A stretch of 22,173 nt of DNA from contig CAZEBC010000022.1 in assembly GCA_964510165.1 (NCBI GenBank), forward strand, positions 4,062 to 26,234, read 5' to 3'. The stretch comes from an uncultured bacterium (lineage in GTDB: Bacteria; Abyssobacteria; SURF-5). This document shows positions 1-17,329 of this stretch, one piece after another. The first letter of the stretch is position 1; each line of letters starts with the position of its first letter. The notes below the pieces were generated by a model. It saw nothing but the letters and a program-made list of their open reading frames with translations, was not told where the DNA came from and did not search any database. The position numbers and the translations under genes are program-made.

Positions 1-1
1 C

Positions 2-190
<189 letters not shown>

Positions 191-213
191 GACTGCCCCG
201 TAATCGGTATCTC

Positions 214-266
214 GTAGGGGCGGCCCTGCGTGGCCGCGCGGGCGCCCGCATAGGGGGCGCCCCTAC
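214..266. repeat. GTAG-type REP doublet (two inverted REP units, REPIN-like)
   Basis: GTAGGGGCGGCCCTGCGTGGCCGC is followed by GGGCGCCCGCATAGGGGGCGCCCCTAC. Each unit is GTAG plus a GC-rich hairpin. The first unit is nearly identical to the reverse complement of 8618-8642. Confidence 0.8.
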
Positions 267-305
267 ATTTGGCGCAGCCCTTTTTTCCGCATTTTCATCG
301 GGCAC

Positions 306-334
306 TTGTAATTTCCCGCAGATGGTGTTATAAT
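306..334 (+). promoter_or_regulatory. Sigma70-type promoter of the cytochrome operon
   Basis: TTGTAA (306-311), 17-nt spacer, TATAAT (329-334), preceded by TG at 326-327 (extended -10). Confidence 0.7.
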
Positions 335-482
335 TGCGCCAGTAACCGGTGTGCCGTTTTGCCGGTACAGCCCACATGCACTCCCGAGAGGTCGATGGGG
401 AGAGAGTCTTCGCAGTAACAACCCTTTGCACCAGACCCTCCTGACCGAGTAGCTTATTTTTTTCAACAAGGTTTGGGGAAAA

Positions 483-1739
483 ATGCACAGAAAATTTTTG
501 CTCTCTGCGTTTGCCATTCTCTTGGTGTTTCTGCTGAGCGCCTCTGCGTATGCGGAGTGGATCAAATGGGACAATTGCATCGCGTGTCATTCAGAAGCGC
601 GAGAGGATTCGCGAGCCCCGTTCGTGGACCCCGCTATCCTCGACAGCTCGGTCCACAAGAACATGAAGTGTCTTGACTGCCATGATGACGTGCGCGAGGT
701 GAAACACGTCGTCGGGGAAGTGCCTCATCAGAAATATCCCGAGAAGGTGAGTTGCACACGGAAATGCCATGTTCAGGGAAATAAGGTGGGCGCCCCCGAT
801 TTCTCGCCCATGGAGCAATACCGTGACAGCGTTCACGGGATGGCGAAAACCGCCGGAGTGGCCGATGTGGCAACATGCACGGACTGCCATGGCCGTCATA
901 ACATAAGGCCGAAAGACGACCCCGCGTCCACGGTCTACCGCGCCAACATACCCCGAACCTGCGCCCTGTGTCATGAGAATATGCAGGTGGTCGTCAAACA
1001 CCACATTCATGCCGAAAAGCCGTTCCAGGAGTATGAGCAGAGCGTGCATGGGAAAGCGCTCTATCGCGACGGGCTGATCCAGTTCGCGGCGGTGTGCACC
1101 GACTGTCACGGCGTTCACGATATCCAGGCCGCAGGCACACCCAATATTCGGCCTCGCCGCCCCGAGACATGCGGTGAATGTCACCTCGGCGTCTATGAGG
1201 TATATCGAGAAAGCACTCACGGGGTCGCCGCCATTGAGAAGCGTAATCCCGACGCGCCGGTCTGCGCCGATTGCCACGGAGAACACTCCATCTCGGTGCC
1301 GACGGAAGGCAATATTCCGCTGCTCTGCTCGAAATGCCATGGCGTCGAAGGCATCATGACCAAGTATGAAATCCCGGTCGACCGCACCGCCACGTATCAA
1401 CAGAGCTATCATGGCGTTGCAAGCAGTTACGGCAGCAAGACCGTGGCCAACTGCGCAAGCTGCCACGGTCACCACGATATTCGGCCCCCTACTGACCCCA
1501 AGTCCTCCATTCATCCGGCCAATCTGGAGAAAACTTGCGGCAAGGCCAGATGTCATCCGGGAATCTCCTCGAAGGTGGCATCGGCCAAGATACACGTGGA
1601 CGTAATGAAGCCGGAGGCCGGCAGCGTATATTACGTGCGCAAGGCCTTCGTCTGGGTCCTGGTCGGATTGCTGGTCGTTACATTCGTCTGGGTGATACCC
1701 GACCTCGCAAGAAGGTTCAGAAAAAGGAGCGGACTCTGA
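483..1739 (+). CDS. Membrane-anchored multiheme cytochrome c (9 CXXCH + 1 CX3CH + 1 CX4CH, up to 11 hemes)
   Basis: Sec-type signal peptide ending ASAYA. Motifs in order: CIACH, CLDCH, CTRKCH, CTDCH, CALCH, CTDCH, CGECH, CADCH, CSKCH, CASCH, CGKARCH. Repeating Y-x-x-S-x-HG...CxxCHGxHxI units. One C-terminal TM helix followed by a basic tail. Confidence 0.93.
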   Translation: MHRKFLLSAFAILLVFLLSASAYAEWIKWDNCIACHSEAREDSRAPFVDPAILDSSVHKNMKCLDCHDDVREVKHVVGEVPHQKYPEKVSCTRKCHVQGNKVGAPDFSPMEQYRDSVHGMAKTAGVADVATCTDCHGRHNIRPKDDPASTVYRANIPRTCALCHENMQVVVKHHIHAEKPFQEYEQSVHGKALYRDGLIQFAAVCTDCHGVHDIQAAGTPNIRPRRPETCGECHLGVYEVYRESTHGVAAIEKRNPDAPVCADCHGEHSISVPTEGNIPLLCSKCHGVEGIMTKYEIPVDRTATYQQSYHGVASSYGSKTVANCASCHGHHDIRPPTDPKSSIHPANLEKTCGKARCHPGISSKVASAKIHVDVMKPEAGSVYYVRKAFVWVLVGLLVVTFVWVIPDLARRFRKRSGL

Positions 1740-1741
1740 GA

Positions 1742-2986
1742 ATGCCGTTGTCTAAACGTACCGTTGTCGCCTTCGTGATCCTGTGGCTGATGGCATGGAC
1801 TCACGCGGCGGCCGCCGCATCCAACGAGGATTGCCTCATGTGTCACGAGGACCCCTCCCTGAAAAACGATGCAGGCGTCTCGCTCGCCGTTGACCGCGAG
1901 ATTTTCCAGAATTCGGTCCATGGACAGAGCGGCATTCAGTGCGCCGACTGCCACGCCGACCTCGCCGGCACGGAAGATTTCCCGCACGCCGCCCCCCTCG
2001 CAAAGGTTGACTGCTCAACCTGTCATTATCAGGAGTACGAGGATTACACGACGAGCATGCATGGGGAGGCCTTCATAGCGGGCGACAAGTCTGTCCCTAC
2101 CTGCGTTACCTGTCACGGCTCGCATAACATACTGCGGCCCGAAGACCCAAAATCATCCGTCTTTGCCCTGAACCTGGTCGAAATCTGCATCCAGTGCCAT
2201 ACCGACACGACAATAGTGGCTGAACACGACTTGGCGCCGGCCGAGAAGATCAGAGCCTACGAGAGCAGCGTCCATATGAAGGCGCTCAAGGAGAAGGGGC
2301 TGAGCGTTTCCGCCGCCTGTAACGACTGTCACGGCTCTCACAAGATCAAGCCGCCCGACAACCCCGACTCTCTCATCAACAGGTTCAATATCCCCAAGAC
2401 GTGCGCCAAGTGCCACCAGGGAATCTACCAGACCTACCTCGAGAGTGTTCACGGACAGGATTTCCTTTTGCAGAATAACGATGTCCCCATCTGCACCGAT
2501 TGTCACGGCGAACACTCAATCAAAGCGCACACCAGTCCCGATTCGGCCGTATACGCCACCCACGTGGCGGAGATTTGCTCCCGCTGTCACGAGGACGAAA
2601 CCCTGAGCAAGAGATACGGATTCGCCTCCCAGCGGCTCAAGAGCTACCTGGGCACTTACCACGGGATCGCTTCCAAGATGGGCGACACAAAGGTCGCCAA
2701 CTGCGCCAGTTGTCATGGGTTCCATGATATCCGGCCGCCTGAGGACCCGAAATCGTCGGTTCACCCCGACAATATCCCCACAACCTGCGGCAAGTGCCAT
2801 CCCCAGGCTGGCAAGAACTTCGCCGTCGGCAAGGTCCATGTGAGCGAGACCAAGGAGAGCAGCCTGGGCGCGTATTTCGTGGAGAAGTTCTATACCATAT
2901 TCATAGCTGCGTCAATCACTGGATTCCTGGTGTTCATCGTCGCCGACCTGTTCGCCCGGCGCAGAAAAGCCAGGAAACAGGCATGA
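1742..2986 (+). CDS. Membrane-anchored undecaheme cytochrome c (paralog of the upstream gene)
   Basis: Start reassigned to ATG 1742 (MPLSKRTVVAFVILWLMAWTHAAAA signal peptide, AAGGAG upstream). 11 CXXCH motifs: CLMCH, CADCH, CSTCH, CVTCH, CIQCH, CNDCH, CAKCH, CTDCH, CSRCH, CASCH, CGKCH. C-terminal TM helix plus RRRKARK tail. Confidence 0.93.
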   Translation: MPLSKRTVVAFVILWLMAWTHAAAAASNEDCLMCHEDPSLKNDAGVSLAVDREIFQNSVHGQSGIQCADCHADLAGTEDFPHAAPLAKVDCSTCHYQEYEDYTTSMHGEAFIAGDKSVPTCVTCHGSHNILRPEDPKSSVFALNLVEICIQCHTDTTIVAEHDLAPAEKIRAYESSVHMKALKEKGLSVSAACNDCHGSHKIKPPDNPDSLINRFNIPKTCAKCHQGIYQTYLESVHGQDFLLQNNDVPICTDCHGEHSIKAHTSPDSAVYATHVAEICSRCHEDETLSKRYGFASQRLKSYLGTYHGIASKMGDTKVANCASCHGFHDIRPPEDPKSSVHPDNIPTTCGKCHPQAGKNFAVGKVHVSETKESSLGAYFVEKFYTIFIAASITGFLVFIVADLFARRRKARKQA

Positions 2987-3007
2987 GGTAAGGGAAGGGG
3001 TTGTAGC

Positions 3008-3850
3008 GTGAAGATTAACGATGACGATCTCGAACTTCTGGCCAAGGCAAAAGAGGCCGGCCTGCTTTCAGCCGAAAAATTTGAAGACGCCGATCTGATG
3101 CCCGACGACGAGGAGTTTGTTCGGCTCACCCTCGCCGAACGCATCCAACACATCATCCTGTTCACGAGCTTTTTCACGCTCGTGCTGACCGGAATCCCGC
3201 TCGTGTTCCCCAATGCGCCGCTCATCCACAAACTGTTCTTCTTCCCTGAAAGCTTTTGGCTGCGCGGCGTCATCCATCGCGTCGCCGGAATCACCCTGAT
3301 GGGAGTGGGAATATTTCAGATCATCTATGTCATGGTCTCGCCTCAAGGCAACCGCGACTTCCATAAGATCATACCGACTCCTCATGACGCCAGAGACGCA
3401 ATCGCCTTGTTCCTCCACAATCTGGGGCTTCGCGACGAGAAGCCCAGGTTCGGCAAGTTCAATTTCATCGAAAAGTTCGAGTACTGGGCGCTCGTGTGGG
3501 GCATATTCGTAATGGCCGTGACGGGGCTGATGCTCTGGTTCCAGGAGGCCACCATCGCGCTCGTCCCCATCCGCGTCCTTGACATCATCCGCATCGTCCA
3601 TGGCTTCGAGGCGATCCTTGCCTTCCTCGCGATCATCATCTGGCACATGTATAACGTGCACCTCAACCCCGAGGTCTTCCCGATGAGCAAGGTCTGGATC
3701 ACAGGCAAGATTTCCAAGGAGGAACTCAAAGAACATCATCCCCTCGAGTATGAGGAAATCCTGAAGGAGCGCAGAGACCAGCGCGAGATGGAACGCATCA
3801 AGGCCCTGCTCGAAGAGGTGAGACAGCAGAAACGCCAGATGGTAGAGTAG
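3008..3850 (+). CDS. Diheme cytochrome b membrane subunit (FdnI/HydC-like; resembles the CbcL b-domain)
   Basis: About four hydrophobic helices with four candidate heme-b His ligands (ERIQH, VIHRV, IVHGFEA, IWHMYNVH). Motifs FGKFNFIEKFEYWALVWG and W-x-TG...EHHPLEY. GTG start preceded by purine-rich GGGAAGGGG. Confidence 0.9.
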   Translation: MKINDDDLELLAKAKEAGLLSAEKFEDADLMPDDEEFVRLTLAERIQHIILFTSFFTLVLTGIPLVFPNAPLIHKLFFFPESFWLRGVIHRVAGITLMGVGIFQIIYVMVSPQGNRDFHKIIPTPHDARDAIALFLHNLGLRDEKPRFGKFNFIEKFEYWALVWGIFVMAVTGLMLWFQEATIALVPIRVLDIIRIVHGFEAILAFLAIIIWHMYNVHLNPEVFPMSKVWITGKISKEELKEHHPLEYEEILKERRDQREMERIKALLEEVRQQKRQMVE

Positions 3851-3859
3851 GCGGATCGT

Positions 3860-3895
3860 GTCCGACTGGTCGGACAAGTCGGACCCGTCCGACCG
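3860..3895. repeat. 9-nt-period palindromic micro-array between convergent genes
   Basis: GTCCGACTG GTCGGACAA GTCGGACCC GTCCGACCG. GTCCGAC and GTCGGAC are reverse complements, giving two hairpins. Confidence 0.7.
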
Positions 3896-3903
3896 CTCCT
3901 GGC

Positions 3904-5337
3904 TCACCGGTACAACACGTTCAAGTACTGTCCCAGCAGCCGTTCGCGAAGGCTTGGCTTGAGCGCGTCGAGCATCTCGTTGATCGTCGCCCATTTCGTC
4001 GGCAGCGACGCCCCCTCGACTCCCGCCATCGCCAATAGCTGCACGAAATGCTCATCTCCAAACTCCTCGGGCCGCATCGCGCCAAACATCTCCCGCACCT
4101 TCGCGCCCACCTTTCCGTATTCCATTCCCTTCACTTTTTCGACCGACTCGCGCAGGTCGCGTATGAAATCGTCAATCCACCGATGATTACCCGGATTGAT
4201 CCCCATGTGCAGATGCTCGCGCGCGTCGCCGAAGCTAAACTGCGCCTGCGCGTGCCAGCCACGCTCGACCAGTTCATCGTAGAGATGGAATATCCCGATG
4301 GTGTCCGATGTGAACGCGAACATGTTCGAGTCGGTCCTGCCGAGCAGCCGCAAGTCGTCCATCTCCTCTATCGCGGCGCAGACTTTCCTGGTGTCCTCGA
4401 GCATATTCCTGAACATCCTGAGATAGCCGTCGTCACCCATGAAATGAAGTATCGCCCACGCCGCCGCCAGCGGACCCGCCGACTTGGTGCTCTGGACCGT
4501 CGTGTTCAAGTGCGTGTAGCCTGTCCACTCGGCGCACATGAAGAATTGGTGATATCGGATATCGCTGTTGCGATACAGCACCACGGACGCGCCCTTGGCC
4601 GCGAACGCATACTTGTGAAAATCCATCGACATCGAAGTGACGCCCGGCACGGAGAAATCGAAATCGGGAACCGGCGCGCCCAGCCGTCGGAAATACGGCA
4701 GCATGAACCCGCCCACGCACGCATCCACATGGAACAAAATGCCGCGCTCGAGCGCGAGCTTCCCGATGTCGCGGATGGGGTCCACCACCCCGTGCGCGTA
4801 CGAGGGCGCCGAGCCGACCAGCAGAATCGTGTTTGAGGTGACCGCCCTGCGCATCGCGTCCACGTCGGCCTTGAAAGTCACCGGGTCCACACGAACCGGA
4901 ACCTTCTTCAAGCAGAAATAGTCGGCCGCCTTGTGGAATGAGCCATGGGCGGTGACCGGCAGAATTATCTCCGGCTCTTTGATGTGCGGCTTCTTCGCGC
5001 GCGCATAATCGCGAGCCGTCTTGACCGCGAGCAGCACGCTTTCGGTTCCGCCGCTCGTGAAGTTGCCGACCACGCTCGAGTCGCCGCTCAGGTGCTCGGC
5101 CGCGATCGCCACAAGCTCGTTCTCGAACCGGAGCACGCTCGGGTACAGGTTTGCATACAGGCAGTTTTCGGAGAGAAAATCCACGTACGCTTTCTTGATT
5201 ACGTCAAGCGCTTCCTCGCCTGGGTCGTACACATACGCGAACGCGCGGCCCGTCCTCCAGTCAAAATCCCCAGCGCGGTAATCATTCAGCCTGGTGAACA
5301 GTTCTTGCTTTGACAGTCCCTTTTCGGGAAGCTTCAT
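3904..5337 (-). CDS. PLP-dependent group II decarboxylase-fold enzyme, sphingosine-1-phosphate lyase-like
   Basis: Motifs TSGGTESVLLA, TAHGSFHKAADYF, SAPSYAHGVVDPI, FHVDACVGGF, FDFSVPGVTSMSMDFHKY (PLP Lys) and KGASVVLYR. N-terminal LPEKG typical of SPL-like proteins. GGAGG RBS. Confidence 0.85.
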   Translation of the reverse strand: MKLPEKGLSKQELFTRLNDYRAGDFDWRTGRAFAYVYDPGEEALDVIKKAYVDFLSENCLYANLYPSVLRFENELVAIAAEHLSGDSSVVGNFTSGGTESVLLAVKTARDYARAKKPHIKEPEIILPVTAHGSFHKAADYFCLKKVPVRVDPVTFKADVDAMRRAVTSNTILLVGSAPSYAHGVVDPIRDIGKLALERGILFHVDACVGGFMLPYFRRLGAPVPDFDFSVPGVTSMSMDFHKYAFAAKGASVVLYRNSDIRYHQFFMCAEWTGYTHLNTTVQSTKSAGPLAAAWAILHFMGDDGYLRMFRNMLEDTRKVCAAIEEMDDLRLLGRTDSNMFAFTSDTIGIFHLYDELVERGWHAQAQFSFGDAREHLHMGINPGNHRWIDDFIRDLRESVEKVKGMEYGKVGAKVREMFGAMRPEEFGDEHFVQLLAMAGVEGASLPTKWATINEMLDALKPSLRERLLGQYLNVLYR

Positions 5338-5370
5338 TACGTTTTCCTCCTGAAACCTTCTTCAGAAAAC

Positions 5371-6774
5371 TCACATCGCGTCGAGCAGCCTGTTATACGC
5401 CTCGACCGTCCGCTTGATCTCCGCCCCCCCGTGCGCGCTCGTCACGAACCCCTTGCCCATCAGCGTCATCACGCCCTCGTTGCGCAGGAACGTCTGGTAA
5501 TTCGTTGCCGCCGTCTTCCGCTCGAATATCCGCGGAATCCCGTCCTCGCTGTTCACGTCAATATGGAATGCGCCCGTCATCTCGACGTGCAGTATCGAGC
5601 CGTAATTGTAAGCGAAGAACGGGAAATTCCTGTCCTCGAACAGCACGTTCAACTCATGGGTCAGACGGTCGGTTATCGCCGCGGCCTTCTCGATCGCGTT
5701 GGTCCGCTCGATCTCGCAAATGGTGAAGTACGTCGCCGCACACGAGAGCAGGTTCGCCGCGATCGTGCCTGCCACGAAGCACGATTTTCCGCCCGACAGG
5801 ATGCCGGAATTCAGGATATCCATCAACTCGGCCTTGCCGGCCAGCGCGCCGCTCGAGGGGAAACATCCGCCCATGATCTTGCCGAGCACAGTAAGCTCCG
5901 GGTCCACGCCGAAACGCTCCTGCGCGCCGCCCATGGCAACCCTGAATCCGGTGACCACCTCGTCGTAAATGAGCACGATGCCGTGCTCCTTCGTTATCTT
6001 GCGAAGCTCTTTGTGGAAATCCTCAGAAAGCGGCATCGTGCCCGATTCGGCCCCGAGGGGCTCCACGAGCACCGCCGCGATTCCGCCGTCTTTTTCGTGC
6101 TCCTCGACGGCTCGTCGAAGCGCATCGAGGTCGTTCTGCGGCACGATGACCGTGTTCGCCGTGACCTCCTCCGGGATTCCGTTTGCCATGAACCGGCCGC
6201 TGTTCGGCACCCACAGGTCCACCACAAGCTGATCCGACCAGCCGTGATAAGTTCCGCAGAACTTCACGATCTTCTTCTTGCCCGTGTACGCGCGCGCCAG
6301 CCGGATGGCCGCCATGTCCGCCTCAGTGCCCGATTGCAAGAACCTCACCTTCTCGACGGCGGGCATGTGCTCGACTATCTTCTCCGCCGCAAGCGTCTCA
6401 TATTCGTCGCACAGTCCGTGAAACGACCCCTTCTTCCTGAGCACGTCCGCCATCTTCTCGATGACGGCGGGCGGATTGTGACCGAGCAGCACCGGCCCGC
6501 CTCCATTCAGATAATCCACGTAGCGATTGCCGTCAACGTCCGTCAGGTACGCGCCATCTCCGCGGTCAATGAAGACGGGATACGGCACGGTGTGCGACAG
6601 CATGTGCTCGCAGCCGCCCGGTATCACTTTCTGCGCCGCCTTGAACATCTGCTCCGATTTGGGCGCCTTCTTCTTCAGTTGCTCAATCGTGCGCGCCATC
6701 ACGTCCTCGCGGATGTGCCTGACAGGCATCCCGGCAAGCGCGCTGCCTCTCTCCTCAATTTCCTTGAATTCCAT
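5371..6774 (-). CDS. Class-III PLP aminotransferase, glutamate-1-semialdehyde aminomutase-like but divergent
   Basis: Motifs GDGAYLTDVDGNRYVDY, SGTEADMAAIRLARAYTG, YHGWSD, LIYDEVVTGFR and LGKIMGG (PLP Lys). AAGGAGG RBS. Confidence 0.88.
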   Translation of the reverse strand: MEFKEIEERGSALAGMPVRHIREDVMARTIEQLKKKAPKSEQMFKAAQKVIPGGCEHMLSHTVPYPVFIDRGDGAYLTDVDGNRYVDYLNGGGPVLLGHNPPAVIEKMADVLRKKGSFHGLCDEYETLAAEKIVEHMPAVEKVRFLQSGTEADMAAIRLARAYTGKKKIVKFCGTYHGWSDQLVVDLWVPNSGRFMANGIPEEVTANTVIVPQNDLDALRRAVEEHEKDGGIAAVLVEPLGAESGTMPLSEDFHKELRKITKEHGIVLIYDEVVTGFRVAMGGAQERFGVDPELTVLGKIMGGCFPSSGALAGKAELMDILNSGILSGGKSCFVAGTIAANLLSCAATYFTICEIERTNAIEKAAAITDRLTHELNVLFEDRNFPFFAYNYGSILHVEMTGAFHIDVNSEDGIPRIFERKTAATNYQTFLRNEGVMTLMGKGFVTSAHGGAEIKRTVEAYNRLLDAM

Positions 6775-6807
6775 GGCCGTTCCTCCTTCGGATCAACGCC
6801 GCCGCCT

Positions 6808-6836
6808 CTCTTCGTGACCCTTCGTGTTCTCCTCGG
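6808..6836 (-). repeat. Short CACGAAG periodic intergenic repeat
   Basis: Minus strand reads CCGAGGAGAA CACGAAGGGT CACGAAGAG (about 10-nt period). CACGAAGAG recurs at 17302-17310. Confidence 0.45.
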
Positions 6837-6849
6837 ATAAATCTTTTCC

Positions 6850-8541
6850 TCACATCATGAGCCTGAAATGCGCATCCTTGCTGATAACGACATCAATAAG
6901 CGCGGGCCGGTCGCTCTGGATCGCCGCCTTCAGCGCGGCCTTGAGTTCTCCGGGCTTCTCGATCCTCAGGCCCTTGCAGCCGATCGAGCGTGCGATCCCG
7001 GCGAAGTCGGTCTCCGGATATTCGGTCGCGATCCGGCGTTCCGGCGACTGGAAGTCCCTCACGTTTCCAAGGCTCGAATTGTTCATGACGACATACGTCA
7101 GCGGTAGGTCATATTGTTTCGCCATCTCGAGGCAATACAGCATCATCATCATGCCGCCGTCGCCGCACACGCACGTCACCTTCCGCTCCGGCGCTATCAT
7201 CTGCGCCGCCAGCGAGGCCGGCACGCTCCAGCCCACTCCCGCTGCGCCGCCCGGCGCCACCACCTGTCCCGCCGACTTCGACCTGAAATGCTTGGCGCAC
7301 CACATGCGGTTATTGCCGCCGTCGAGCACGAGCAGGCCGTCCGGGCCGAGCGCGTCATTCAATTCGCGCACAATTCGCTCGGCGGCGATGGGTTCCTCGT
7401 CAGACGAACACCACTCGCACGAGAAGAATTCGTGCTCGACCTTCAGCTTCTTCAACTCGGCGAGCTTGGTGCCGACGTCTATCTTGGGGTTCCTCGCCTT
7501 GATGGAATCAATGATCGCGCAAAGCGCCGCCTTCGCGTCGGAGGCCACACCGATGGCGACCGGGAACGTCCAGCCGGCGTTTAACGGATCGATATCAATG
7601 TGGATGATTTTCTGGCGCTCGGCGTTGATAAAATCGGGCGAGAGCATCCGCGTGTTCTCAGGTGACAGGCCGGTGCCGACCGCAAGCAGCACGTCAGCCG
7701 CGCTGATCATCTCGTTCGCCACTCGCTGCCCGATGTTGCCCATCGTCCCGAGCGCAAGGTCGTGCGTCTCTGCAATGGCGCTCTTTCCCATGTAACTCGT
7801 CGCGACCGGCAGCCCGATAAGCTCGGCGAGTTCCTGAACCTCTTTATACGCGCGCGAGACGTGGATGCCTCTGCCCGCGATCATCACCGGGTTCTTCGCC
7901 TCGAGCAGCATCTCGGCCACTCTGTCTGCGTCGCCCGCCGAGATGCACGGCGGCGATACGCTCAGATGGCCGACCAGCGGATACACCCTCGGATGCGCAG
8001 ACTCAGGCTCGATCTCCGACGTCATCACGTCCCACCTGACCAGCACACACGCAGGCCCGGGGCGCCCTGTGACCGCGTGCTTTATAGCGAGCTGTGTCCC
8101 GTGCACGAACTCCGACGCCGTGTTCGCGACCGTGGTGTACTTGGTCATCGAACGCATGATGTTCGGAAGGTTGATCGAGCCGTACTCGCCGCCCGCGCAC
8201 TGATACGGCCCGTGCTGGATCAGCCCCGCGTAGTCCGATACGTCGCCGATTATCAGCATCGGCGAGCCGGCCATGTATGCCTCCATCACGGCGAACGCTG
8301 CGTTCGAGCCCATCCATGCGCCCTGACCTATGATCACCCCCGGCTTGCCCGTCAGCCTGCCGTACATGTCCGCCATGCAGGCCGCCCCGCCTTCCTGCCG
8401 GGCAAGCACGGTTCTGATTCGGTCCTGCCTGTCAAAGAGCGCATCAAAAAGGAACAGCGTCGCTCCGCCCGGCAGGCCAAACACGTGGTCAATGCCCGCC
8501 TCGATCAGGGTATCAACAACCGCTTCAGTCGCTTTCGGCAT
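6850..8541 (-). CDS. Thiamine diphosphate-dependent enzyme (acetolactate synthase large subunit-like fold)
   Basis: Start reassigned to ATG 8541 (GAAGGAGG RBS; the upstream extension runs through REP DNA). Motifs VFGLPGG, ARQE (catalytic Glu), GRPGP, IIHIDID and the ThDP/Mg motif GDGG...VMNN. Confidence 0.9.
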   Translation of the reverse strand: MPKATEAVVDTLIEAGIDHVFGLPGGATLFLFDALFDRQDRIRTVLARQEGGAACMADMYGRLTGKPGVIIGQGAWMGSNAAFAVMEAYMAGSPMLIIGDVSDYAGLIQHGPYQCAGGEYGSINLPNIMRSMTKYTTVANTASEFVHGTQLAIKHAVTGRPGPACVLVRWDVMTSEIEPESAHPRVYPLVGHLSVSPPCISAGDADRVAEMLLEAKNPVMIAGRGIHVSRAYKEVQELAELIGLPVATSYMGKSAIAETHDLALGTMGNIGQRVANEMISAADVLLAVGTGLSPENTRMLSPDFINAERQKIIHIDIDPLNAGWTFPVAIGVASDAKAALCAIIDSIKARNPKIDVGTKLAELKKLKVEHEFFSCEWCSSDEEPIAAERIVRELNDALGPDGLLVLDGGNNRMWCAKHFRSKSAGQVVAPGGAAGVGWSVPASLAAQMIAPERKVTCVCGDGGMMMMLYCLEMAKQYDLPLTYVVMNNSSLGNVRDFQSPERRIATEYPETDFAGIARSIGCKGLRIEKPGELKAALKAAIQSDRPALIDVVISKDAHFRLMM

Positions 8542-8573
8542 ATTGCCTCCTTCGGCAACCCTCGGCCTTCTCT

Positions 8574-8642
8574 GTAGGGGCGCGGCGCGCCGTGCCCCTA
8601 CGAAATGTGTGCGCCCCGGCGGCCACACAGGGCCGCCCCTAC
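8574..8642. repeat. GTAG-type REP cluster
   Basis: GTAGGGGCGCGGCGCGCCGTGCCCCTAC (8574-8601, near-perfect palindrome) and GGCGGCCACACAGGGCCGCCCCTAC (8618-8642; reverse complement GTAGGGGCGGCCCTGTGTGGCCGCC matches the unit at 214). Confidence 0.82.
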
Positions 8643-8653
8643 AATTCACGGCC

Positions 8654-10123
8654 CTATCCCTTGACCTCTATCTTCTTCAGCCTCGCCCATCTTGAATGTT
8701 CGTCGTCGGGGTCGGCCAGCTCGATGATCCTCGCAAGATGCTCCCGAGCCTGCTTCGAGCGGCCCAACTCCATGTGCGCCTCCGTCAAGAACCTGTAAGC
8801 GCGCACCTCCACCGCGGGCGCAATCTCGCGTTCGAATGTCCTGGCAAGCCACGCGGGCCAGTCCGGTCTCTTTGAAATCTCGCGACCCGGCGGCTCGCGT
8901 CTCAACGCTTCTATCGCGCGCTCAAGCATCTCGATGCCTTTTTCGCGCATGTCGAACACGACCGGAAGTATCGTATAGACCGCGCCGCAAACATACAAGG
9001 AAAGAAGCGACCAGACGTCATTAGTCTCGCGAGCGCCCTCGATGCGCCGCAGGCGCCCGAGCGCCTTTTTCAAGTAAACCATTGGTGACGAGAAGCCGGA
9101 GGCCGCCCCGGCCGCAAACATATACGCAAGCGCCGCCGCTGCGTTCTGCTCGGGTCGCCGCGCCGGACGGGGAACATGCCGCTCCGCCATGTCAAGCGCT
9201 GCGCTCGTGTCGCCTCGCAAAACATGCGCAACGATGGCCGCCGCCGAATACAGAGTGTCGTCCCCGGCGTCCGCCTTCAATGTCTCGAGAGCCGGTTCGT
9301 AGCGGCCCTGCAGCAAAAAATAAGCGAGCCGCTCATCGGGACTATTCGGCGGTTCGGCGGGCAATTCGCGGCCGGCAATCGGCAAGAATGACAGCATCGC
9401 CAGACGCTCCGAAAGCCCCGCTGTCTGCGCGATTGCGTCTCGGCTCAGGCTGCGCAGCAACTTGTGCCGGATCAGCACCACGAATCTGTCAAGCGATTCG
9501 TCGGCCTCGGTCAGGAACTTCACCGTCTGTCGCGTCGAAAAATCGCCGAGCATGTTCTTCGCGAACAGCCGGATGTCCTCGCGCACCGCGCGCTCCATCG
9601 CGTCCCGGTACGCCCGCACAGTCTCGACCGAATGATCGAACGGCACACCCGTCTCCTCGCGCCGCTTCATGATCTCGATGATCCGGCAATCAATCGAATC
9701 GTAATACTTGCCCCCATCAGCCGTGCCCGGCGTCACAAGCCCCTCCTTTTCGAGCAGCCTGATCTTCTCGATGGGGTAGCCCGTGTGCCGCTCGATGCGC
9801 GCCTCGCTCACCGGACGGCCCTCGGCGGGAAGCCGGTCGGTCTTGAAGATCGCTCGCCCGAGCTCAAGCTCCTCCTCCAACGCCGAGCCGGAATCGAGCA
9901 GGCGCTTGATGACATCGAGCGGCATGAATTTCTCGCGCTGAAGTTTCTTGATGAGACGGATACGCTCCACGCAGGCCTCGTCGTAATAGGCCATTGTCTT
10001 GCCCGTCTTATGGGGTCTCGGCAAGAGCCCTTCATTAACGTAATGCTTGATGGTTGCGGCGGAGACCCCGGCGCGCCTGGCGAGTTCGCCCGCCCGGAGC
10101 ATGTTTTTTGTTGCGTGTTTCAT
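8654..10123 (-). CDS. MerR-family transcriptional regulator with two MerR-like HTH domains and a long helical C-terminal extension
   Basis: N-terminal LRAGELARRAGVSAATIKHYVNEGLLP...YYD is a MerR HTH. A second, degenerate copy follows: VSEARIERHTGYPIEKIRLLEKEGLVTP...YYD. Ala/Leu-rich helical C-terminal half ending in a TPR-like LTEAHMELGRSKQAREHLARIIEL. Confidence 0.85.
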   Translation of the reverse strand: MKHATKNMLRAGELARRAGVSAATIKHYVNEGLLPRPHKTGKTMAYYDEACVERIRLIKKLQREKFMPLDVIKRLLDSGSALEEELELGRAIFKTDRLPAEGRPVSEARIERHTGYPIEKIRLLEKEGLVTPGTADGGKYYDSIDCRIIEIMKRREETGVPFDHSVETVRAYRDAMERAVREDIRLFAKNMLGDFSTRQTVKFLTEADESLDRFVVLIRHKLLRSLSRDAIAQTAGLSERLAMLSFLPIAGRELPAEPPNSPDERLAYFLLQGRYEPALETLKADAGDDTLYSAAAIVAHVLRGDTSAALDMAERHVPRPARRPEQNAAAALAYMFAAGAASGFSSPMVYLKKALGRLRRIEGARETNDVWSLLSLYVCGAVYTILPVVFDMREKGIEMLERAIEALRREPPGREISKRPDWPAWLARTFEREIAPAVEVRAYRFLTEAHMELGRSKQAREHLARIIELADPDDEHSRWARLKKIEVKG

Positions 10124-12053: not shown

Positions 12054-12075
12054 TTGTTTGAAACGTTTGTTTGAA
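12054..12075. promoter_or_regulatory. Putative TetR operator overlapping the transcription start
   Basis: Imperfect palindrome TTGAAAC-GTTT-GTTTGAA (12058-12075), which also reads as the direct repeat TTGTTTGAA at 12054 and 12067. It lies immediately downstream of the -10 box. Confidence 0.55.
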
Positions 12076-12096
12076 TACCCTGGCTTCGGGTGTGCG

Positions 12097-12756
12097 ATGG
12101 AAGACATCTCGAAAAAGAGCGATGACACGAAGGCAAAGCTGATTGAGGCGGCGGGAGAGGTGTTTGCTCAGCGTGGATTCCGGTCTGCGACGGTGAGGGA
12201 GATTTGCAGCCGTGCCGGCGCCAATGTGGCCGCGGTGAATTATCACTTCCGGGACAAAGAAGGGCTCTATGTGGCCGTTCTGGAGCACTCGCTCCAATCG
12301 GCGAGAAGAAAGTATCCGCCCGATTTGGGCCTTGGGGATGGAGCGACACCGGAGGAAAAACTGAGAGCATTCATTCACTCCCTTCTCTTGCGTATTTTGG
12401 GTGAGGGCGTTCCTGCCTGGCATGGAAAGCTGATGGCCAGGGAAATCTCCGATCCGACCGGCGCGCTTGGCCGGGTGGTGCAGAGTTCGATCCGACCTCT
12501 TCATGTGTACCTGGTGAGCATTCTCCGTGAATTGCTCCAGGAGGAGAGGGCCGGGGAGGGGGAGGAGAGCGACGAGATCTTCCTTTGTGCGATGAGCATT
12601 ATTGGGCAGTGTTTGCAGCATTTTACGGGAAAACAGATCATCGCGGCGCTTCGGCCGGAGGGTTTCAATCCTGCCGATATCGCGACGATTGGAGACCACA
12701 TTACGCGCTTCTCCCTCGGAGGTATTCGAGCGCTTAGAGCGGCGGCATCGTTGTGA
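12097..12756 (+). CDS. TetR/AcrR-family regulator, CecR/CerR-like (DUF1956-type C-terminus)
   Basis: TKAKLIEAAGEVFAQRGFRSATVREICSRAGANVAAVNYHFRDKEGLY is a TetR HTH. LMAREISDPT...SIIGQC...HITRFSLGGI is characteristic of the CecR-like C-domain. ATG 12097 is preferred over TTG 12058, which lies inside the operator. Confidence 0.9.
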   Translation: MEDISKKSDDTKAKLIEAAGEVFAQRGFRSATVREICSRAGANVAAVNYHFRDKEGLYVAVLEHSLQSARRKYPPDLGLGDGATPEEKLRAFIHSLLLRILGEGVPAWHGKLMAREISDPTGALGRVVQSSIRPLHVYLVSILRELLQEERAGEGEESDEIFLCAMSIIGQCLQHFTGKQIIAALRPEGFNPADIATIGDHITRFSLGGIRALRAAASL

Positions 12757-12833
12757 TGCCATAGCCCTGAAGCCGCGCCTGGAACGTGCAGCATCGCCCC
12801 AATGCTCACGGTGCGACGGAGCCGCGACCCAAG

Positions 12834-12912
12834 CCCCTCACCCTGCCTTCCCACAGTGGAAAAGAGAAACTTGAATGCGCCTTCTCCCAGTGGGAGAGGG
12901 TTGGGGTAAGGG
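12834..12912. repeat. Inverted pair of CCCTCACCC...CTCTCCC-type palindromic REP-like elements
   Basis: CCCCTCACCCTGCCTTCCCACAGTGGAAAAGAG on the + strand and CCCTTACCCCAACCCTCTCCCACTGGGAGAAGG on the - strand, facing each other between tetR and the adaptor gene. Confidence 0.65.
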
Positions 12913-12973
12913 AGAAGACCCGTGCAGTCTTGCGAGTATGCGCATGTCATGATGGATGTTTTGGAGGAGTTTG

Positions 12974-14164
12974 ATGGGTATGTATAGGAAGCGTTTTGAA
13001 CCATTAGGATGCGCCGTTGTGGTGCTGGCGCTTTTGTTGCTGGGCGGCTGCCACAGCGGAAGCGGGCGGCAAGCCGCTCAGGCACGTGTGCCGGAGGTGG
13101 CCACGGTGGCCGTCGAGACGCATGAGGTCGAGCTGAGCACGGAGTTGCCGGGTCGGACCTGTGCGTATCTGGTTGCTGAAATCAGGCCCCAGGTGAACGG
13201 CATCATCCAGAAGCGTCTATTCAAGGAAGGCTCCGATGTCAAGGCGGGCGAATTGCTTTATCAAATTGATCCCGCTCCGTTTCAGGTGGCGCACGATTCT
13301 GCGAAGGCGTCGCTGGGGAAGGCGCAGGCCAATCTTTCAGTGGTCCGGTTGAGGGCCGAGCGGTACGCGGACCTGCTCGCCGACGAATTGGTGAGCAAAC
13401 AGGCGTATGATGACGCGGCAGCCGCTCTGGAACAGGCGCGGGCCGAGGTTGAATATTCGAAGGCGCAGGTTGAAGGAGCACGCATCAATCTAGGCTACAC
13501 CCGCGTGACGGCGCCCATCTCGGGCCGGATCGGCAGGTCCAACGTGACAGACGGGGCGCTGGTGACGGCGTACCAGCCAATGAGTCTTGCAACCATTCAA
13601 CAGTTGGACCCGATTTATGTGGATGTGACCCAATCGTCGGCGGAGTTGCTGCGTTTGAAACGAAGCCTTGAGACAGGGCGGCTCAGTGCGGATGGGGAAA
13701 ATCAAAAAAGAGTCCGACTGGTTCTCGAAGATGGAACCCCGTATTCCCACGAAGGCACGCTGCAGTTCCGGGACGTGACGGTGGACCCGGCGACCGGGTC
13801 TTTCACGGTGCGTATCGTGGTCCCGAATCCCGAGCATCTGCTCCTGCCGGGCATGTTCGTGCGGGCGGTTGTGCAAGAGGGTGTGGCTGAAGGGGCGGTG
13901 CTCGTTCCTCAGCAAGGCGTGACGCGCAATCCGAAGGGCAAGCCGATCGCGCTGATTGTGGATGAGACTGGCACGGTGCAACAGCGGATGCTGACGCTTG
14001 ATCGCGCTATCGGCGATCAGTGGCTCGTTTCCTCGGGATTATCGAGTGGAGAGCGCTTGATCATTGAAGGCATGTTAAACGTGCGCCCGGGCGACACGGT
14101 GAAGGTTGTTTCCTCAGGCGGCCAGGGAGTTTCCGAAACGAGTCCGCCCGCAGAATCGAATTGA
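12974..14164 (+). CDS. acrA: RND efflux periplasmic adaptor (AcrA/MexA family) lipoprotein
   Basis: GGAGGA RBS before ATG 12974. Lipobox LLGGC. Motifs ELPGRT...AEIRPQVNGIIQKRLFKEGSDVKAGELLYQIDP, APISGRIGRS, QQLDPIYVDVTQS and NPEHLLLPGMFVRA. Confidence 0.93.
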   Translation: MGMYRKRFEPLGCAVVVLALLLLGGCHSGSGRQAAQARVPEVATVAVETHEVELSTELPGRTCAYLVAEIRPQVNGIIQKRLFKEGSDVKAGELLYQIDPAPFQVAHDSAKASLGKAQANLSVVRLRAERYADLLADELVSKQAYDDAAAALEQARAEVEYSKAQVEGARINLGYTRVTAPISGRIGRSNVTDGALVTAYQPMSLATIQQLDPIYVDVTQSSAELLRLKRSLETGRLSADGENQKRVRLVLEDGTPYSHEGTLQFRDVTVDPATGSFTVRIVVPNPEHLLLPGMFVRAVVQEGVAEGAVLVPQQGVTRNPKGKPIALIVDETGTVQQRMLTLDRAIGDQWLVSSGLSSGERLIIEGMLNVRPGDTVKVVSSGGQGVSETSPPAESN

Positions 14165-14176
14165 AGGAGCGTCTCG

Positions 14177-17100
14177 ATGTTATCGAACTTTTTTTTGGAC
14201 CGCCCGGTCTTCGCATGGGTCATTGCGATTGTGATGATGCTGGCAGGCGGGCTGGCGATTTATAACCTGCCGATTTCGCAGTATCCCCCGATCGCTCCCC
14301 CCTCGATTTCGATCAGCGCTTTTTATCCCGGGGCTTCCGCCGAGACGGTTGAAAACAGCGTGGTCCAGATCATTGAGCAGAAGATGACGGGCTTCGACAA
14401 GATGCTTTACATGTCGGCCACTAGCGACGCATCCGGCGCGGGAAGAATTGAACTCACGTTTGCTCCGGGGACCGATCCGGACCTTGCCTGGGCCCAGGTG
14501 CAAAACAAACTGCAACTCGCTATGGCGAGCCTGCCCGACGTGGTGCAGCGCCAGGGGGTCAAGGTCAGCAAATCCACAAGAAACTACCTTATGCTGGTGG
14601 GCTTGACCTCGGAAGACGGCAGCATGGACATGATTGACTTGGCGGATTACGCCCAATCCCAGGTTGAGAACGTGCTGGCGCGGGTGCCGGGTGTGGGCGA
14701 AGTGGAAAGCTTCGGTTCCCAGTATGCAATGCGGGTGTGGCTGAATCCGGATAAGCTGACCGATTATCGGTTGACGATAGAAGACGTGGTCCTCGGCCTT
14801 CGCGCCTATAATGTCGAGGTTTCCGCCGGCCAATTCGGCGGGGCTCCCGCGGTGAGAGGCCAACGATTGAACGCCTCCATCATTGTCCAGAACCTCCTGA
14901 AGACACCTGAAGAGTTTGCCGCAATCCCCTTGCGGGTCAATGCAGACGGCTCTGTCGTGCGGGTGCGGGACGTGGGGTGGACGGAATTGGGCGCCGAGCG
15001 TTACGAGACGCAATCACTTTACAATGGCAAGCCTGCCTCTGTGCTGGCCGTGCGGCAGGCCGCAGGCGCCAATGCGCTGGACACCGCGGACGCCGTCAAG
15101 GCCACCATGAAGGACTTGGAGAAATATTTCCCGTCCGGGATGAAGGTCATCTATCCCTATGACACCACGCCCTTCGTGAGAGTGGCCATCGAAGAAGTGG
15201 TCAAGACACTGTTTGAGGCGATTCTGTTGGTCTTCCTGGTGATGTATCTGTTCCTCGGAAACCTAAGGGCCACGCTCATTCCGACCATCGCGGTGCCGGT
15301 GGTCATTCTGGGGACTTTCGCAGTGCTAGGGTTGTTCGGATTCTCCATCAACATGCTGACCATGTTCGCCATGGTGCTGGCCATCGGGCTTCTGGTGGAC
15401 GACGCCATCGTAGTAGTGGAGAACGTGGAACGCGTCATGAAAGAGGAAGGACTGCCGCCCAAGGAAGCGACCCGCAAGTCCATGGGAGAGATCACGAGCG
15501 CGTTGATTGGCATCGGGCTGGTGCTGGCGGCGGTATTCGGCCCCATGGCTTTCTTCGGCGGCTCGACCGGAGTCATATATCGGCAATTCTCCATCACCGT
15601 CATCGCCGCAATGTTGTTATCGGTTGTGGTGGCGCTGATCCTGAACCCTGTTCTTTGCGCATCGCTTCTCAAGCCGGTGGCAAAGGGGCACGAGCCTGCC
15701 GAGACCGGCTTCTTCTTGTTCCGGCCATTCTTCCGCTGGTTTGATCGGGTTTTCTATCGTGTAAGAGACGGCTATCAGGCGATGGTCGGCCGGATTCTTT
15801 CCAGAAAACTGCGTTACCTGTTCATTTATGTCCTTATTGCAGCGGCCCTGGGTTTTCTGTTCCGACGAATGCCGACCGCATATCTGCCCGATGAGGACCA
15901 AGGCATCATGTTCGTCCAGGCGATGTTGCCGACCGGCTCGACCCTGGAGCAGACCGAGCAGGTCATGACGACTGTCCGAAACCATTTCTTGATGGACGAA
16001 AAAGAAGCGGTCGAATCCATCATGTCGCTGAGCGGCAGGAGTTTTGCCGGGGCGGGACAGAATGTGGGGATGGCGTTCATCAAGCTCAAGGACTGGGAAC
16101 TGCGCGACCGGCCTGAGCTGAAAGTAGACGCGGTGGTCGGTCGAGCGATGTCGGCGTTTTCGAGAATCCGCAATGCACGGGTACATGCGTTTCCGCCGCC
16201 GGCGGTTGTCGAGCTGGGCCAGGCGGGCGGATTCGATTTTCAACTGCAGGATCGGGGTGGGCTGGGTCACGAGGCGCTTATGGCGGCGCGCAACAAGTTG
16301 CTTGACATGGCAAGCCATGACGTGAGGCTGACGCGTGTCCGTCCGAACGGCCTGGAAGATGTGCCCCAATATCGAATCGACGTGGATTGGGAAAAGGCGG
16401 GCGCCCTGGGAGTTCCGATCAACGCCATTCACAACGCGATCTCGGCCTCATTCGGCAGCGCATATGTGAATGACTTCATTCAGGGGGGACGTGTCAAACG
16501 AGTGTACGTTCAGGCCGACGCTCACCACCGCATGTTGCCCACCGACGTGGAGCGGTTGTACGTGCGCAATGAAGCGGGGACGATGACGCCGTTTTCTTCA
16601 TTCGCATCCGGGCGCTGGAGCTATGGAGCATCGCGGCTGGAACGTTTCAACTCCTTCCCTTCGCTGAACATCTGGGGGGAACCGCCGCAGGGGAAAAGCT
16701 CAGGAGAGGCGATGCAGGCGATGGAAGAGATCGTCTCGAAATTGCCGAGGGGCATCGGCTTTGACTGGACGGGGGTGTCTTACCAGGAGCGGATGGCCAA
16801 ATCCCAAGCGCCGCTGTTGTATGCGTTTTCCATGATCGTGATATTCCTCTGTCTGGCCGCGCTTTACGAGAGTTGGACCGTTCCGATTTCGGTCATGCTG
16901 GCGCTGCCGCTCGGAGTCATCGGCGGAGTGGTCGGCACATCGCTTCGCGGCCTGCCGAACGACGTATATTTTCAGATTGGGCTCCTTACCGTCTTGGGGC
17001 TTACAACCAAGAACGCCATCTTGATCGTGCAATTCGCCATGGCCAGGGTCAGAGAGGGAATGGGGCTGATTGAAGCCACGCTGGAAGGGGCCAGATTGAG

Positions 17101-17329
17101 GCTTCGCCCGATCCTGATGACTTCACTGGCGTTCGGGTTTGGCGTGCTCCCTCTGGCGATGGCCAGCGGCGCAGGCGCTGGAGCGCAAACGGCCATCGGC
17201 ACCGGCGTTTTGGGCGGGATGATCACGGCCACGTTCCTGGCGATCTTCTTCATACCCCTCTTCTATGTGGGGGTGGTTCAATTGTTTGAAGGGGGCCTGT
17301 CCACGAAGAGCACAAAGAGGGAGGAATGA
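14177..17329 (+). CDS. acrB: RND efflux permease (HAE1, AcrB/MexB family)
   Basis: 1050 aa. [14 protein letters not shown]...LPISQYP start; [16 protein letters not shown] (proton-relay Asp pair); [19 protein letters not shown]. Confidence 0.96.

Follow-up and report, generated by a model that had tools for sequence, protein, structure and literature searches.

A putative split quinol:cytochrome c oxidoreductase with an accessory eleven-heme cytochrome in an uncultured member of the Abyssubacteria

The Geobacter sulfurreducens protein CbcL (GSU0274) joins a nine-heme c-type cytochrome domain to an FdnI/HydC-type diheme cytochrome b domain in a single polypeptide with six transmembrane helices, and it has no Fe-S, flavin, NiFe or Mo subunit. 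Spectroscopy indicates bis-His ligation of its hemes (PMC9129911), and the protein serves potential-gated respiration to low-potential acceptors (bioRxiv 2022.08.31.506072). Homologs in the wider CbcL/MtrH/MtoC group are fused proteins of 416-1034 amino acids with 3-23 CX2CH motifs and 4-6 transmembrane helices (PMC6295460). Here we analysed a 22,173-nucleotide window (the whole stretch of DNA under study; contig CAZEBC010000022.1 of assembly GCA_964510165.1) from an uncultured bacterium of the Abyssubacteria, in which genes for two eleven-heme c-type cytochromes, A and B, are followed by a gene for a diheme cytochrome b, termed b. The explanation that we favour, at a probability of about 0.6, is that B and b form a split menaquinol:cytochrome c oxidoreductase related to CbcL, and that A is an accessory multiheme wire orphaned from a second cytochrome b.

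Both the c and the b domains of the CbcL/MtrH/MtoC group are homologous to A/B and to b, and A-B-b resembles CbcL in lacking Fe-S, flavin, NiFe and Mo subunits. For alignment, CbcL was represented by nine-heme, six-helix proteins from the phylum of genome G156 rather than by GSU0274 itself; two of these stand-ins have valine at position 205, as CbcL does. Identity to the stand-ins was 27-37% for the c part and 28-34% for the b part (E down to 1e-42), and A and B are collinear with them except for one extra two-heme module. However, the c and b parts are here encoded by separate genes, A and B have eleven c hemes each rather than nine, and B plus b have five transmembrane helices in total (one anchor and four) rather than six. 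All 28 six-helix proteins and 86 of the 119 fused five-helix proteins have a histidine in the anchor that is absent at that position in A and B. Moreover, the b domain of CbcL-architecture proteins belongs to another clade than b, and A-B-b includes an extra anchored c subunit. Being split, with eleven hemes, five helices and no anchor histidine, the A-B-b module is not an ortholog of CbcL, though it would probably work like one. Similarly B-b, at 694 amino acids in sum, eleven hemes and five helices, is a split relative of the fused CbcL/MtrH/MtoC group rather than a member, and would probably work like the family.

Split pairs are already in print. Carboxydocella thermautotrophica has two-gene clusters of a diheme cytochrome b and a membrane-anchored multiheme c-type cytochrome, proposed to be quinol oxidases (PMC6085454); the accessible text describes no second c subunit, and the comparison is by description, not by sequence. 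The CbcBA system (GSU0593-0594) also combines a separate four-helix cytochrome b with a C-terminally anchored multiheme c-type cytochrome, both of which are needed for function, yet it is reported to lack sequence homology to CbcL, has seven hemes and takes the fourth b-heme histidine from CbcA (bioRxiv 10.1101/2021.04.15.440034). Its b protein thus has three histidines, whereas ours has four, with none at that anchor position in A or B, and no sigma-54 regulator is adjacent to A-B-b in the window, where CbcBA would have a BccR-type regulator nearby. In Mco of ANME-2a/2b, a hydrogenase-type cytochrome b is followed by a 7-11-heme cytochrome that replaces the catalytic subunits (PMC9012536); as described, Mco is archaeal, VhtC-derived and methanophenazine-linked with a single c gene, so it is an analogy by description only. 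We found no account of a two-c-plus-b gene order in the open-access literature, where figures or supplements of PMC6295460 may list such neighbours. The accessible text of neither the genomic description of 'Ca. Abyssubacteria' (PMC6121073) nor a cytochrome survey (PMC11492766) mentions the cassette, and that of the former does not mention multiheme respiration. A first-pass annotation of this DNA had proposed an undescribed system; that suggestion holds for the extra A gene, but not for the split pair (PMC6085454).

Anatomy of the locus

All 22 cysteines of A and all 22 of B sit inside heme motifs, which is not given by chance. B has eleven CX2CH motifs, while A has nine together with one CX3CH (heme 3) and one CX4CH (heme 11), leaving two of its eleven sites non-canonical. 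Among 40 loci that encode both proteins, 22 histidines are invariant in A and 22 in B, corresponding to eleven proximal and eleven candidate distal ligands in each; exactly 22 per protein fits eleven bis-His hemes and a pure wire. The two proteins align end to end at 37% identity, and each has an N-terminal hydrophobic segment and a single C-terminal transmembrane segment. These motif, membrane-segment and alignment counts bear out the earlier description of two collinear eleven-site cytochromes with signal peptide and C-terminal anchor, and the shared motif quoted at the time (YHG.AS..G...) is present in both. The features of the locus, in window coordinates, are:

306..334, plus strand: match to the sigma-70 promoter consensus at 10 of 12 positions, with a TG-extended -10 element, about 150 nucleotides 5' of A
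483..1739, plus strand: A, eleven-heme c-type cytochrome of 418 amino acids with signal-like N-terminus and C-terminal anchor
753..836, plus strand: CX3CH motif of heme 3 in A and the long insert behind it
981..1016, plus strand: conserved beta-hairpin specific to A, with a 23rd conserved histidine, H176 (95% of 40 orthologs)
1536..1556, plus strand: CX4CH motif of heme 11 in A, membrane-adjacent; some nine-heme c9 subunits (see below) have the same motif
1644..1700, plus strand: membrane anchor of A, weakly conserved (0 of 24 columns at or above 90%)
1742..2986, plus strand: B, eleven-heme c-type cytochrome of 414 amino acids, the probable cognate c half of a split c+b unit
2891..2959, plus strand: membrane anchor of B, with one conserved helical face
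3008..3850, plus strand: b, four-helix diheme cytochrome b of the FdnI fold, 280 amino acids
3846..3899, no strand assigned: short inverted repeats between b and the convergent gene, a possible terminator

The start of B was set at the ATG at 1742, where its signal peptide begins, two bases past the stop of A; a TTG start at 1535 offered by the open-reading-frame tool overlaps A. The resulting A-B gap is 2 nucleotides. Since the next gene past b (3904-5337) lies convergently on the opposite strand, and 390 nucleotides separate A from the upstream GH1 gene, the A-B-b unit contains no Mo, NiFe, Rieske or porin gene, as had been claimed for the operon from the letters alone. Two promoter-like sites were found in positions 1-4100 against 1.8 expected from shuffled sequence, so that position alone makes the site before A suggestive, and the folding of the 3' inverted repeats was not significant (z = -1.38). 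The 3' hairpin was judged not to belong to a repeat family, as its pattern has three matches in the genome, two of them here.

The closest named homologs come from 'Ca. Abyssubacteria' (93% for b and 89% for A). Sequence and profile searches of the PDB returned only weak multiheme matches for A and B and only FdnI for b. An AlphaFold2 model of A (mean predicted local distance difference test score, pLDDT, 84) gave HAO-family matches only in Foldseek, at a template modelling score (TM-score) of 0.35 or less; we read these as shared heme-packing motifs rather than as a catalytic site. A search of the ESM Atlas returned multiheme clusters only.

Cytochrome b and its cognate c subunit

The b protein has four hydrophobic, membrane-spanning segments and is the sole PF01292 member above cut-off in the genome. 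Its histidines H48, H90, H198 and H213 align to H18, H57, H155 and H169 of Escherichia coli FdnI, in agreement with the four-histidine cytochrome b expected after the c genes, and N152 aligns to N110 of FdnI. We take the four FdnI histidines to be heme ligands and N110 to be part of the quinone site. An AlphaFold2 model of b (pLDDT 87.6) superimposes on FdnI (PDB 1KQF chain C) with a TM-score of 0.76 at 27% sequence identity. While FdnI and HyaC thus share the fold, the four histidines and the N110 position with b, they work with FdnG/FdnH or HyaAB partners, of which none was found in the A-B-b unit or in the genome.

This likeness raises the question of whether b instead anchors a formate dehydrogenase or hydrogenase whose genes lie elsewhere, with the c genes as bystanders. 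The best named matches of b are indeed FdnI models, and databases label its homologs 'formate dehydrogenase gamma subunit'. Against this, b scored 82.1 with TIGR01583, below the cut-off of 115.85, and 21.5 with TIGR02125, where the cut-off is 121.5. The 97%-complete genome assembly contains no match to the NiFe large subunit (0 for PF00374) and no FdnG above the TIGR01553 cut-off. Furthermore, the best 120 of 522 longer homologs of b are all fusions of a multiheme c-type cytochrome to a cytochrome b, with 6-32 heme motifs (eleven in 68 of them) and 39-51% identity to b, compared with 27% for FdnI. In a 98-row FastTree of cytochromes b, in which FdnI and HyaC form long branches, b groups with the five-helix fused and split forms (support 92); the six-helix CbcL-architecture proteins (97), the b' proteins introduced below (96) and FdnI/HyaC fall in clades apart from it. 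The grouping with formate dehydrogenase or hydrogenase anchors, named at the outset as the result that would overturn the proposal, did not occur. By its sequence kinships b is not an orphan anchor of either enzyme, and we regard that explanation as very improbable.

Some fused homologs of b are unusual in their own right. In P0056, P0075 and P0118 a close b homolog (48-53% identity) is fused to an N-terminal response-regulator receiver domain (PF00072), pointing to a quinone oxidoreductase controlled by phosphorylation. P0121 (1636 amino acids), with 32 heme motifs altogether, has a five-helix unit of the eleven-heme c+b type and, after it, a CbcL-type multiheme unit of six helices; it may be a real fusion or a join made in gene calling.

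Several lines of evidence single out B as the c partner of b. All 120 of the best fused homologs score higher against B than against A. In the 40 paired loci, a face of the B anchor (Y384, I388, I392, F398, I399, D402 and R406) is 90-100% conserved, while no column of the A anchor reaches 90%. When proteins are matched for core identity (0.35-0.55), anchor identity is 0.29 for A, 0.46 for B and 0.57 for c9, and the number of columns conserved at 90% or more, of 24, is 0, 6 and 9, respectively. A also lacks the conserved membrane-proximal loop of B. Because the best fused homologs are without exception closer to B, and because the B anchor is conserved, B and b appear from their sequences to be a split member of the CbcL-related c+b group, and B is probably the cognate c partner of b, which it would bind; this is the core of the explanation given about 0.6 above. 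The proposal of a CbcL-related quinone:cytochrome c oxidoreductase is accordingly strengthened as the most likely function, with b grouping among fused and split c+b proteins rather than with FdnI/HyaC.

The same contrasts bear on whether A and B could replace each other as outlets of different potential, competing for one site on b. Their common eleven-site layout and 37% identity would fit such a pair, and the non-canonical motifs of hemes 3 and 11 in A could shift potentials. However, A-like proteins account for none of the best 120 fused forms, at the loci examined no A-clade gene immediately preceded b in the absence of B, and A has neither the conserved anchor face nor the membrane-proximal loop of B. 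We therefore consider equivalent outlets, as the first-pass annotation had envisaged, improbable: only B combines a conserved anchor face with kinship to the fused forms. A predicted complex of A, B and b, with A as partner, scored 0.48, below a control in which B was replaced (0.56), and is weighed neither for nor against binding.

Origin and role of the second cytochrome

Within the Abyssubacteria family, b is present in 8 of 10 genomes including that of the window, and the split between c and b genes is kept in the seven others. A-B-b occurs in seven of these family genomes, amid unrelated flanks; the family member G002 has B-b only, with no A in the 1080 nucleotides upstream and none at E<=1e-60. 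Searches with b gave 589 confirmed genome loci, and among the best 80 of these, 28 were A-B-b, 23 were B-b without A directly upstream, 10 had b after a c gene with another heme count, 6 were fused and 13 were short or other. The best 80 of 453 metagenome loci included 11 A-B-b plus L159 and L185, whose long open frames had led the script to place them with the 13 'without A'; another 41 were left unassigned for shortness or other reasons. With 23 of 80 genome loci lacking A directly upstream against 28 having it, the notion of three obligatory subunits is doubtful.

To avoid selection on b, A was also used as query, in genome sets that overlap the b-query loci and contain related, non-independent genomes. 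In the class of G031 (Aminicenantes), 14 of 121 genomes have A, directly before B in 12. Of the others, G062 has the genes on two short contigs, between which a fused form lies; on the complete chromosome of G031 some 1.9 Mb separate B-b from the A ortholog, which follows genes for a kinase and a sigma-54 regulator. In records of the phylum of G034 (Glassbacteria/Gemmatimonadota), A occurs in 6 of 201 genomes; in 5 of these B follows it directly, and in G565 five genes stand between the two. In the phylum of G156, 13 of 401 genomes gave a match at E<=1e-100 (four candidates scored per genome), and the five examined were B-type or other c+b clusters. Overall, A stands directly before B in 24 of 27 A-bearing genomes from Abyssubacteria, Aminicenantes and Glassbacteria, and a B-type gene is present in all 27. 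In Aminicenantes the trio is usually the last part of a longer cluster (18-heme c, cytochrome b6, nine-heme c and four-heme c), with an MtrA/MtrB pair or a fused CbcL-type gene near some loci. The module that precedes A-B-b there is on a separate contig in the window genome, where an ExtKL-like five-heme cytochrome, a Rieske protein, cytochrome b6, subunit IV and a nine-heme c are encoded at G000:C12:29657-33733 (L003 5658-9734).

The A-type proteins form one clade in two trees (support 98 with 44 rows and 99 with 13 rows). We rejected a recent tandem duplication: holding A and B of the Abyssubacteria together gave p = 0.000168 in the approximately unbiased (AU) test. That rejection makes the A/B pair old, so the 'duplicated' module of the first-pass annotation does not stand as a local event. 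In the tree with 13 A rows, the sister of A is c9 (Shimodaira-Hasegawa-like approximate likelihood ratio test, 90), the nine-heme subunit of four-gene operons ordered B-b-c9-b' or c9-B-b-b', where b' is a second cytochrome b; the latter order occurs in L061, L106 and L136. The distance from heme 3 to the next histidine is similar in A (median 20 residues) and c9 (22) and shorter in B (12), and the short spacing recurs in 46 of 68 fused eleven-heme forms and all six aligned CbcL-type rows. Of the three anchors, that of c9 shows the strongest conservation, as expected if c9 packs on b'. No b' is present in the window genome. From these sequence relationships we infer that A may be the orphaned partner of a lost b'.

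Some observations weigh against this origin. A tree rooted with CbcL-type rows, from which the variable module had been removed, places A and c9 outside the group of B and fused forms (92/85, unstarred) and resolves neither the A/c9 sisterhood nor the monophyly of A. A 21-residue insert at heme 3 is also found in 5 of 68 fused eleven-heme forms, no A-clade gene at the loci examined is still followed by its own b', and the A anchors of Abyssubacteria and Glassbacteria keep the terminal aspartate of the B and c9 anchors.

The window genome has a second A-clade gene, A2, on contig C15, with 48% identity to A. In all six family genomes A2 lacks a neighbouring cytochrome b, which indicates that the A clade can live without b; it is preceded by HmcB/C-like genes and a heme-motif kinase in 6 of 6 and followed by Qrc genes in 3 of 6. 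The locus (G000:C15:27500-40400; L002 2534-15363; orthologous L218-L222) further encodes three membrane-anchored GcvH-like proteins, and together with this trio and the histidine kinase bearing the heme c motif it is conserved in 6 of 6 family genomes. Two-component genes also lie beside these cytochrome clusters in several lineages (L041/L282, L093, L055, L224), in two cases with a kinase that has one CxxCH.

A could nevertheless be a stable third subunit, in one of two forms: it might dock on B, giving a branched 22-heme wire over a single b, or b might form a homodimer with A on one protomer and B on the other, the homodimer then making up for the lost b'. The gene order (A directly before B in 24 of 27 genomes, with the 2-nucleotide gap of the window), the retention of the A-specific hairpin with its extra conserved histidine, and the c9-B-b-b' order, which suggests an ancestral four-subunit complex, speak for a third subunit. 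However, the relaxed anchor of A argues against docking on b, B-b occurs without A, A is remote from B-b in G031 and separated from B by five genes in G565, and A2 has no neighbouring cytochrome b. On this balance a stable third subunit seems unlikely, though it is the main rival to the favoured role of A.

A more specific version, which we offer tentatively, is a stable asymmetric complex derived from a (c.b)(c'.b') heterodimer after loss of b', in which A would stay docked on B as part of a branched 22-heme wire with a second exit for a dedicated partner. The exit might be marked by the hairpin histidine and the CX3CH and CX4CH sites, and the partner might resemble the heme-motif sensor kinases beside A-clade genes. 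If true, this would be an architecture not described for CbcL-type enzymes and kept in at least three uncultured lineages. The isoelectric point of A exceeded that of B in 16 of 41 pairs, and we accordingly dismissed a pairing of A and B by complementary charge. Under the explanation that we favour, A most likely does not interact through the docking site of B on b, to judge by its anchor, and would serve as a tethered relay or heme store.

Electron flow and genomic setting

In the favoured mechanism, b would bind two b hemes across the membrane and, by homology to FdnI, exchange electrons with menaquinone at a site on the cytoplasmic side, while B would pack on b through its conserved anchor helix. 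Electrons would pass from menaquinol over both b hemes to the membrane-proximal heme of B and through its eleven hemes to periplasmic carriers. The likeliest direction would be oxidation of quinol, with the electrons going to periplasmic reductases and possibly to a porin-cytochrome conduit. A would be an old, optional second wire, derived from a c subunit that once partnered b' in c-b-c'-b' operons; with b' lost, it would now receive electrons from B or from soluble carriers and act as a relay or heme store tethered to the membrane. For CbcL, a quinone site on the cytoplasmic side would mean that oxidation of quinol releases protons inside and conserves no energy, matching its low yield (bioRxiv 2022.08.31.506072). 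Because the quinone site would likewise face the cytoplasm, by homology to FdnI, B-b would presumably conserve no energy at this step. It may therefore be a low-yield, low-potential route beside an ImcH-like protein of the same genome (504 amino acids, G000:C87:32-1546, L298), which has three N-terminal transmembrane segments, seven heme motifs including a CX3CH, and similarity to NrfH, as in the ImcH layout of three transmembrane segments, CX3CH and NrfH similarity (PMC6295460).

The genome contains much of what such a route would use: mqnE and mqnC of the futalosine menaquinone pathway, four CcsA/ResC genes, a c7 triheme gene before a TtrA-like enzyme, a second TtrA-like enzyme of the twin-arginine translocation (Tat) type and an octaheme reductase-like protein. 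The genes mqnE and mqnC lie at G000:C22:21-3157 (L001), upstream of the window, within 4.5 kb and on the same strand; a functional link with A-B-b is unsupported, as the flanks differ in relatives. The search for cytochrome c maturation and porin-cytochrome genes, suggested with the first description of the locus, thus returned the four CcsA/ResC genes and one weak MtrB-like match: a DmsE-like lipoprotein gene, which contains an assembly gap, stands beside a gene for a 676-amino-acid protein that matches MtrB at 23.6 bits (cut-off 23). At this locus (G000:C85:4200-11651, L295) the octaheme reductase-like gene is on one strand and the DmsE-like, MtrB-like, probable ResB and CcsA/ResC genes are on the other. 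The DmsE-like/MtrB-like cluster is a candidate porin-cytochrome conduit. Extracellular electron transfer is one possible sink among several, and extracellular acceptors are no more plausible than periplasmic reductases as the destination of the electrons.

The module could also run inward, from periplasmic cytochromes to menaquinone, with proton uptake from the cytoplasm contributing to the proton motive force, as in an MtoC- or Qrc-like system. FdnI works so in the formate redox loop, and b keeps its fold, ligands and N110 position; MtoC homologs occur in Fe(II) oxidisers, and the accessible text of PMC6295460 gives no sequence feature that separates the directions. The genome also encodes exported molybdoenzymes of the dimethyl sulfoxide (DMSO) reductase type II group, with direction unassigned. 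On the other hand, the periplasmic donors NiFe hydrogenase and FdnG were not found in the assembly, the annotated exported enzymes include TtrA-like and octaheme reductase-like sinks, and CbcL, the sole tested relative, works outward (bioRxiv 2022.08.31.506072). Two considerations hold against a confident choice of the outward direction: homologs of the CbcL/MtrH/MtoC group have been proposed to be bidirectional (PMC6295460), and the genome has so many other quinone-linked complexes (Qrc-like, Hmc-like and Rieske/cytochrome b) that direction is not readable from gene content. We judge inward flow to be the less probable direction, at odds that are far from negligible; this alternative touches the direction alone and agrees with the anatomy proposed for the split B-b enzyme and its accessory A.

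The remaining window genes include a minus-strand group convergent on b (3904-10123), encoding a pyridoxal phosphate-dependent decarboxylase or lyase, a class-III aminotransferase, a thiamine pyrophosphate enzyme and a MerR-family regulator whose C-terminal domain is long. A plus-strand group (12058-17329) encodes a TetR/CecR-type regulator, a membrane-fusion protein and a 1050-amino-acid transporter that is of the RND type by its sequence, an efflux operon with no adjacent outer-membrane channel gene.

In summary, the core B-b is a known design, to which this locus adds an old, optional A of probable orphan origin in a compact, testable cassette; no textbook view is changed unless A proves to be a true subunit. 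CbcL is one of the few tested entries from the quinone pool into extracellular or periplasmic respiration, and its relatives are mislabelled in databases. The locus points to multiheme respiration in a lineage for which the accessible text of the genomic description (PMC6121073) does not discuss such respiration. Here a cassette shared by Abyssubacteria, Aminicenantes and Glassbacteria/Gemmatimonadota occurs in its minimal stand-alone form, small enough for expression as a whole and for dissection gene by gene. It offers a natural way to ask what is gained from a second anchored wire, and how c+b modules come to be split, paired or stripped of subunits.

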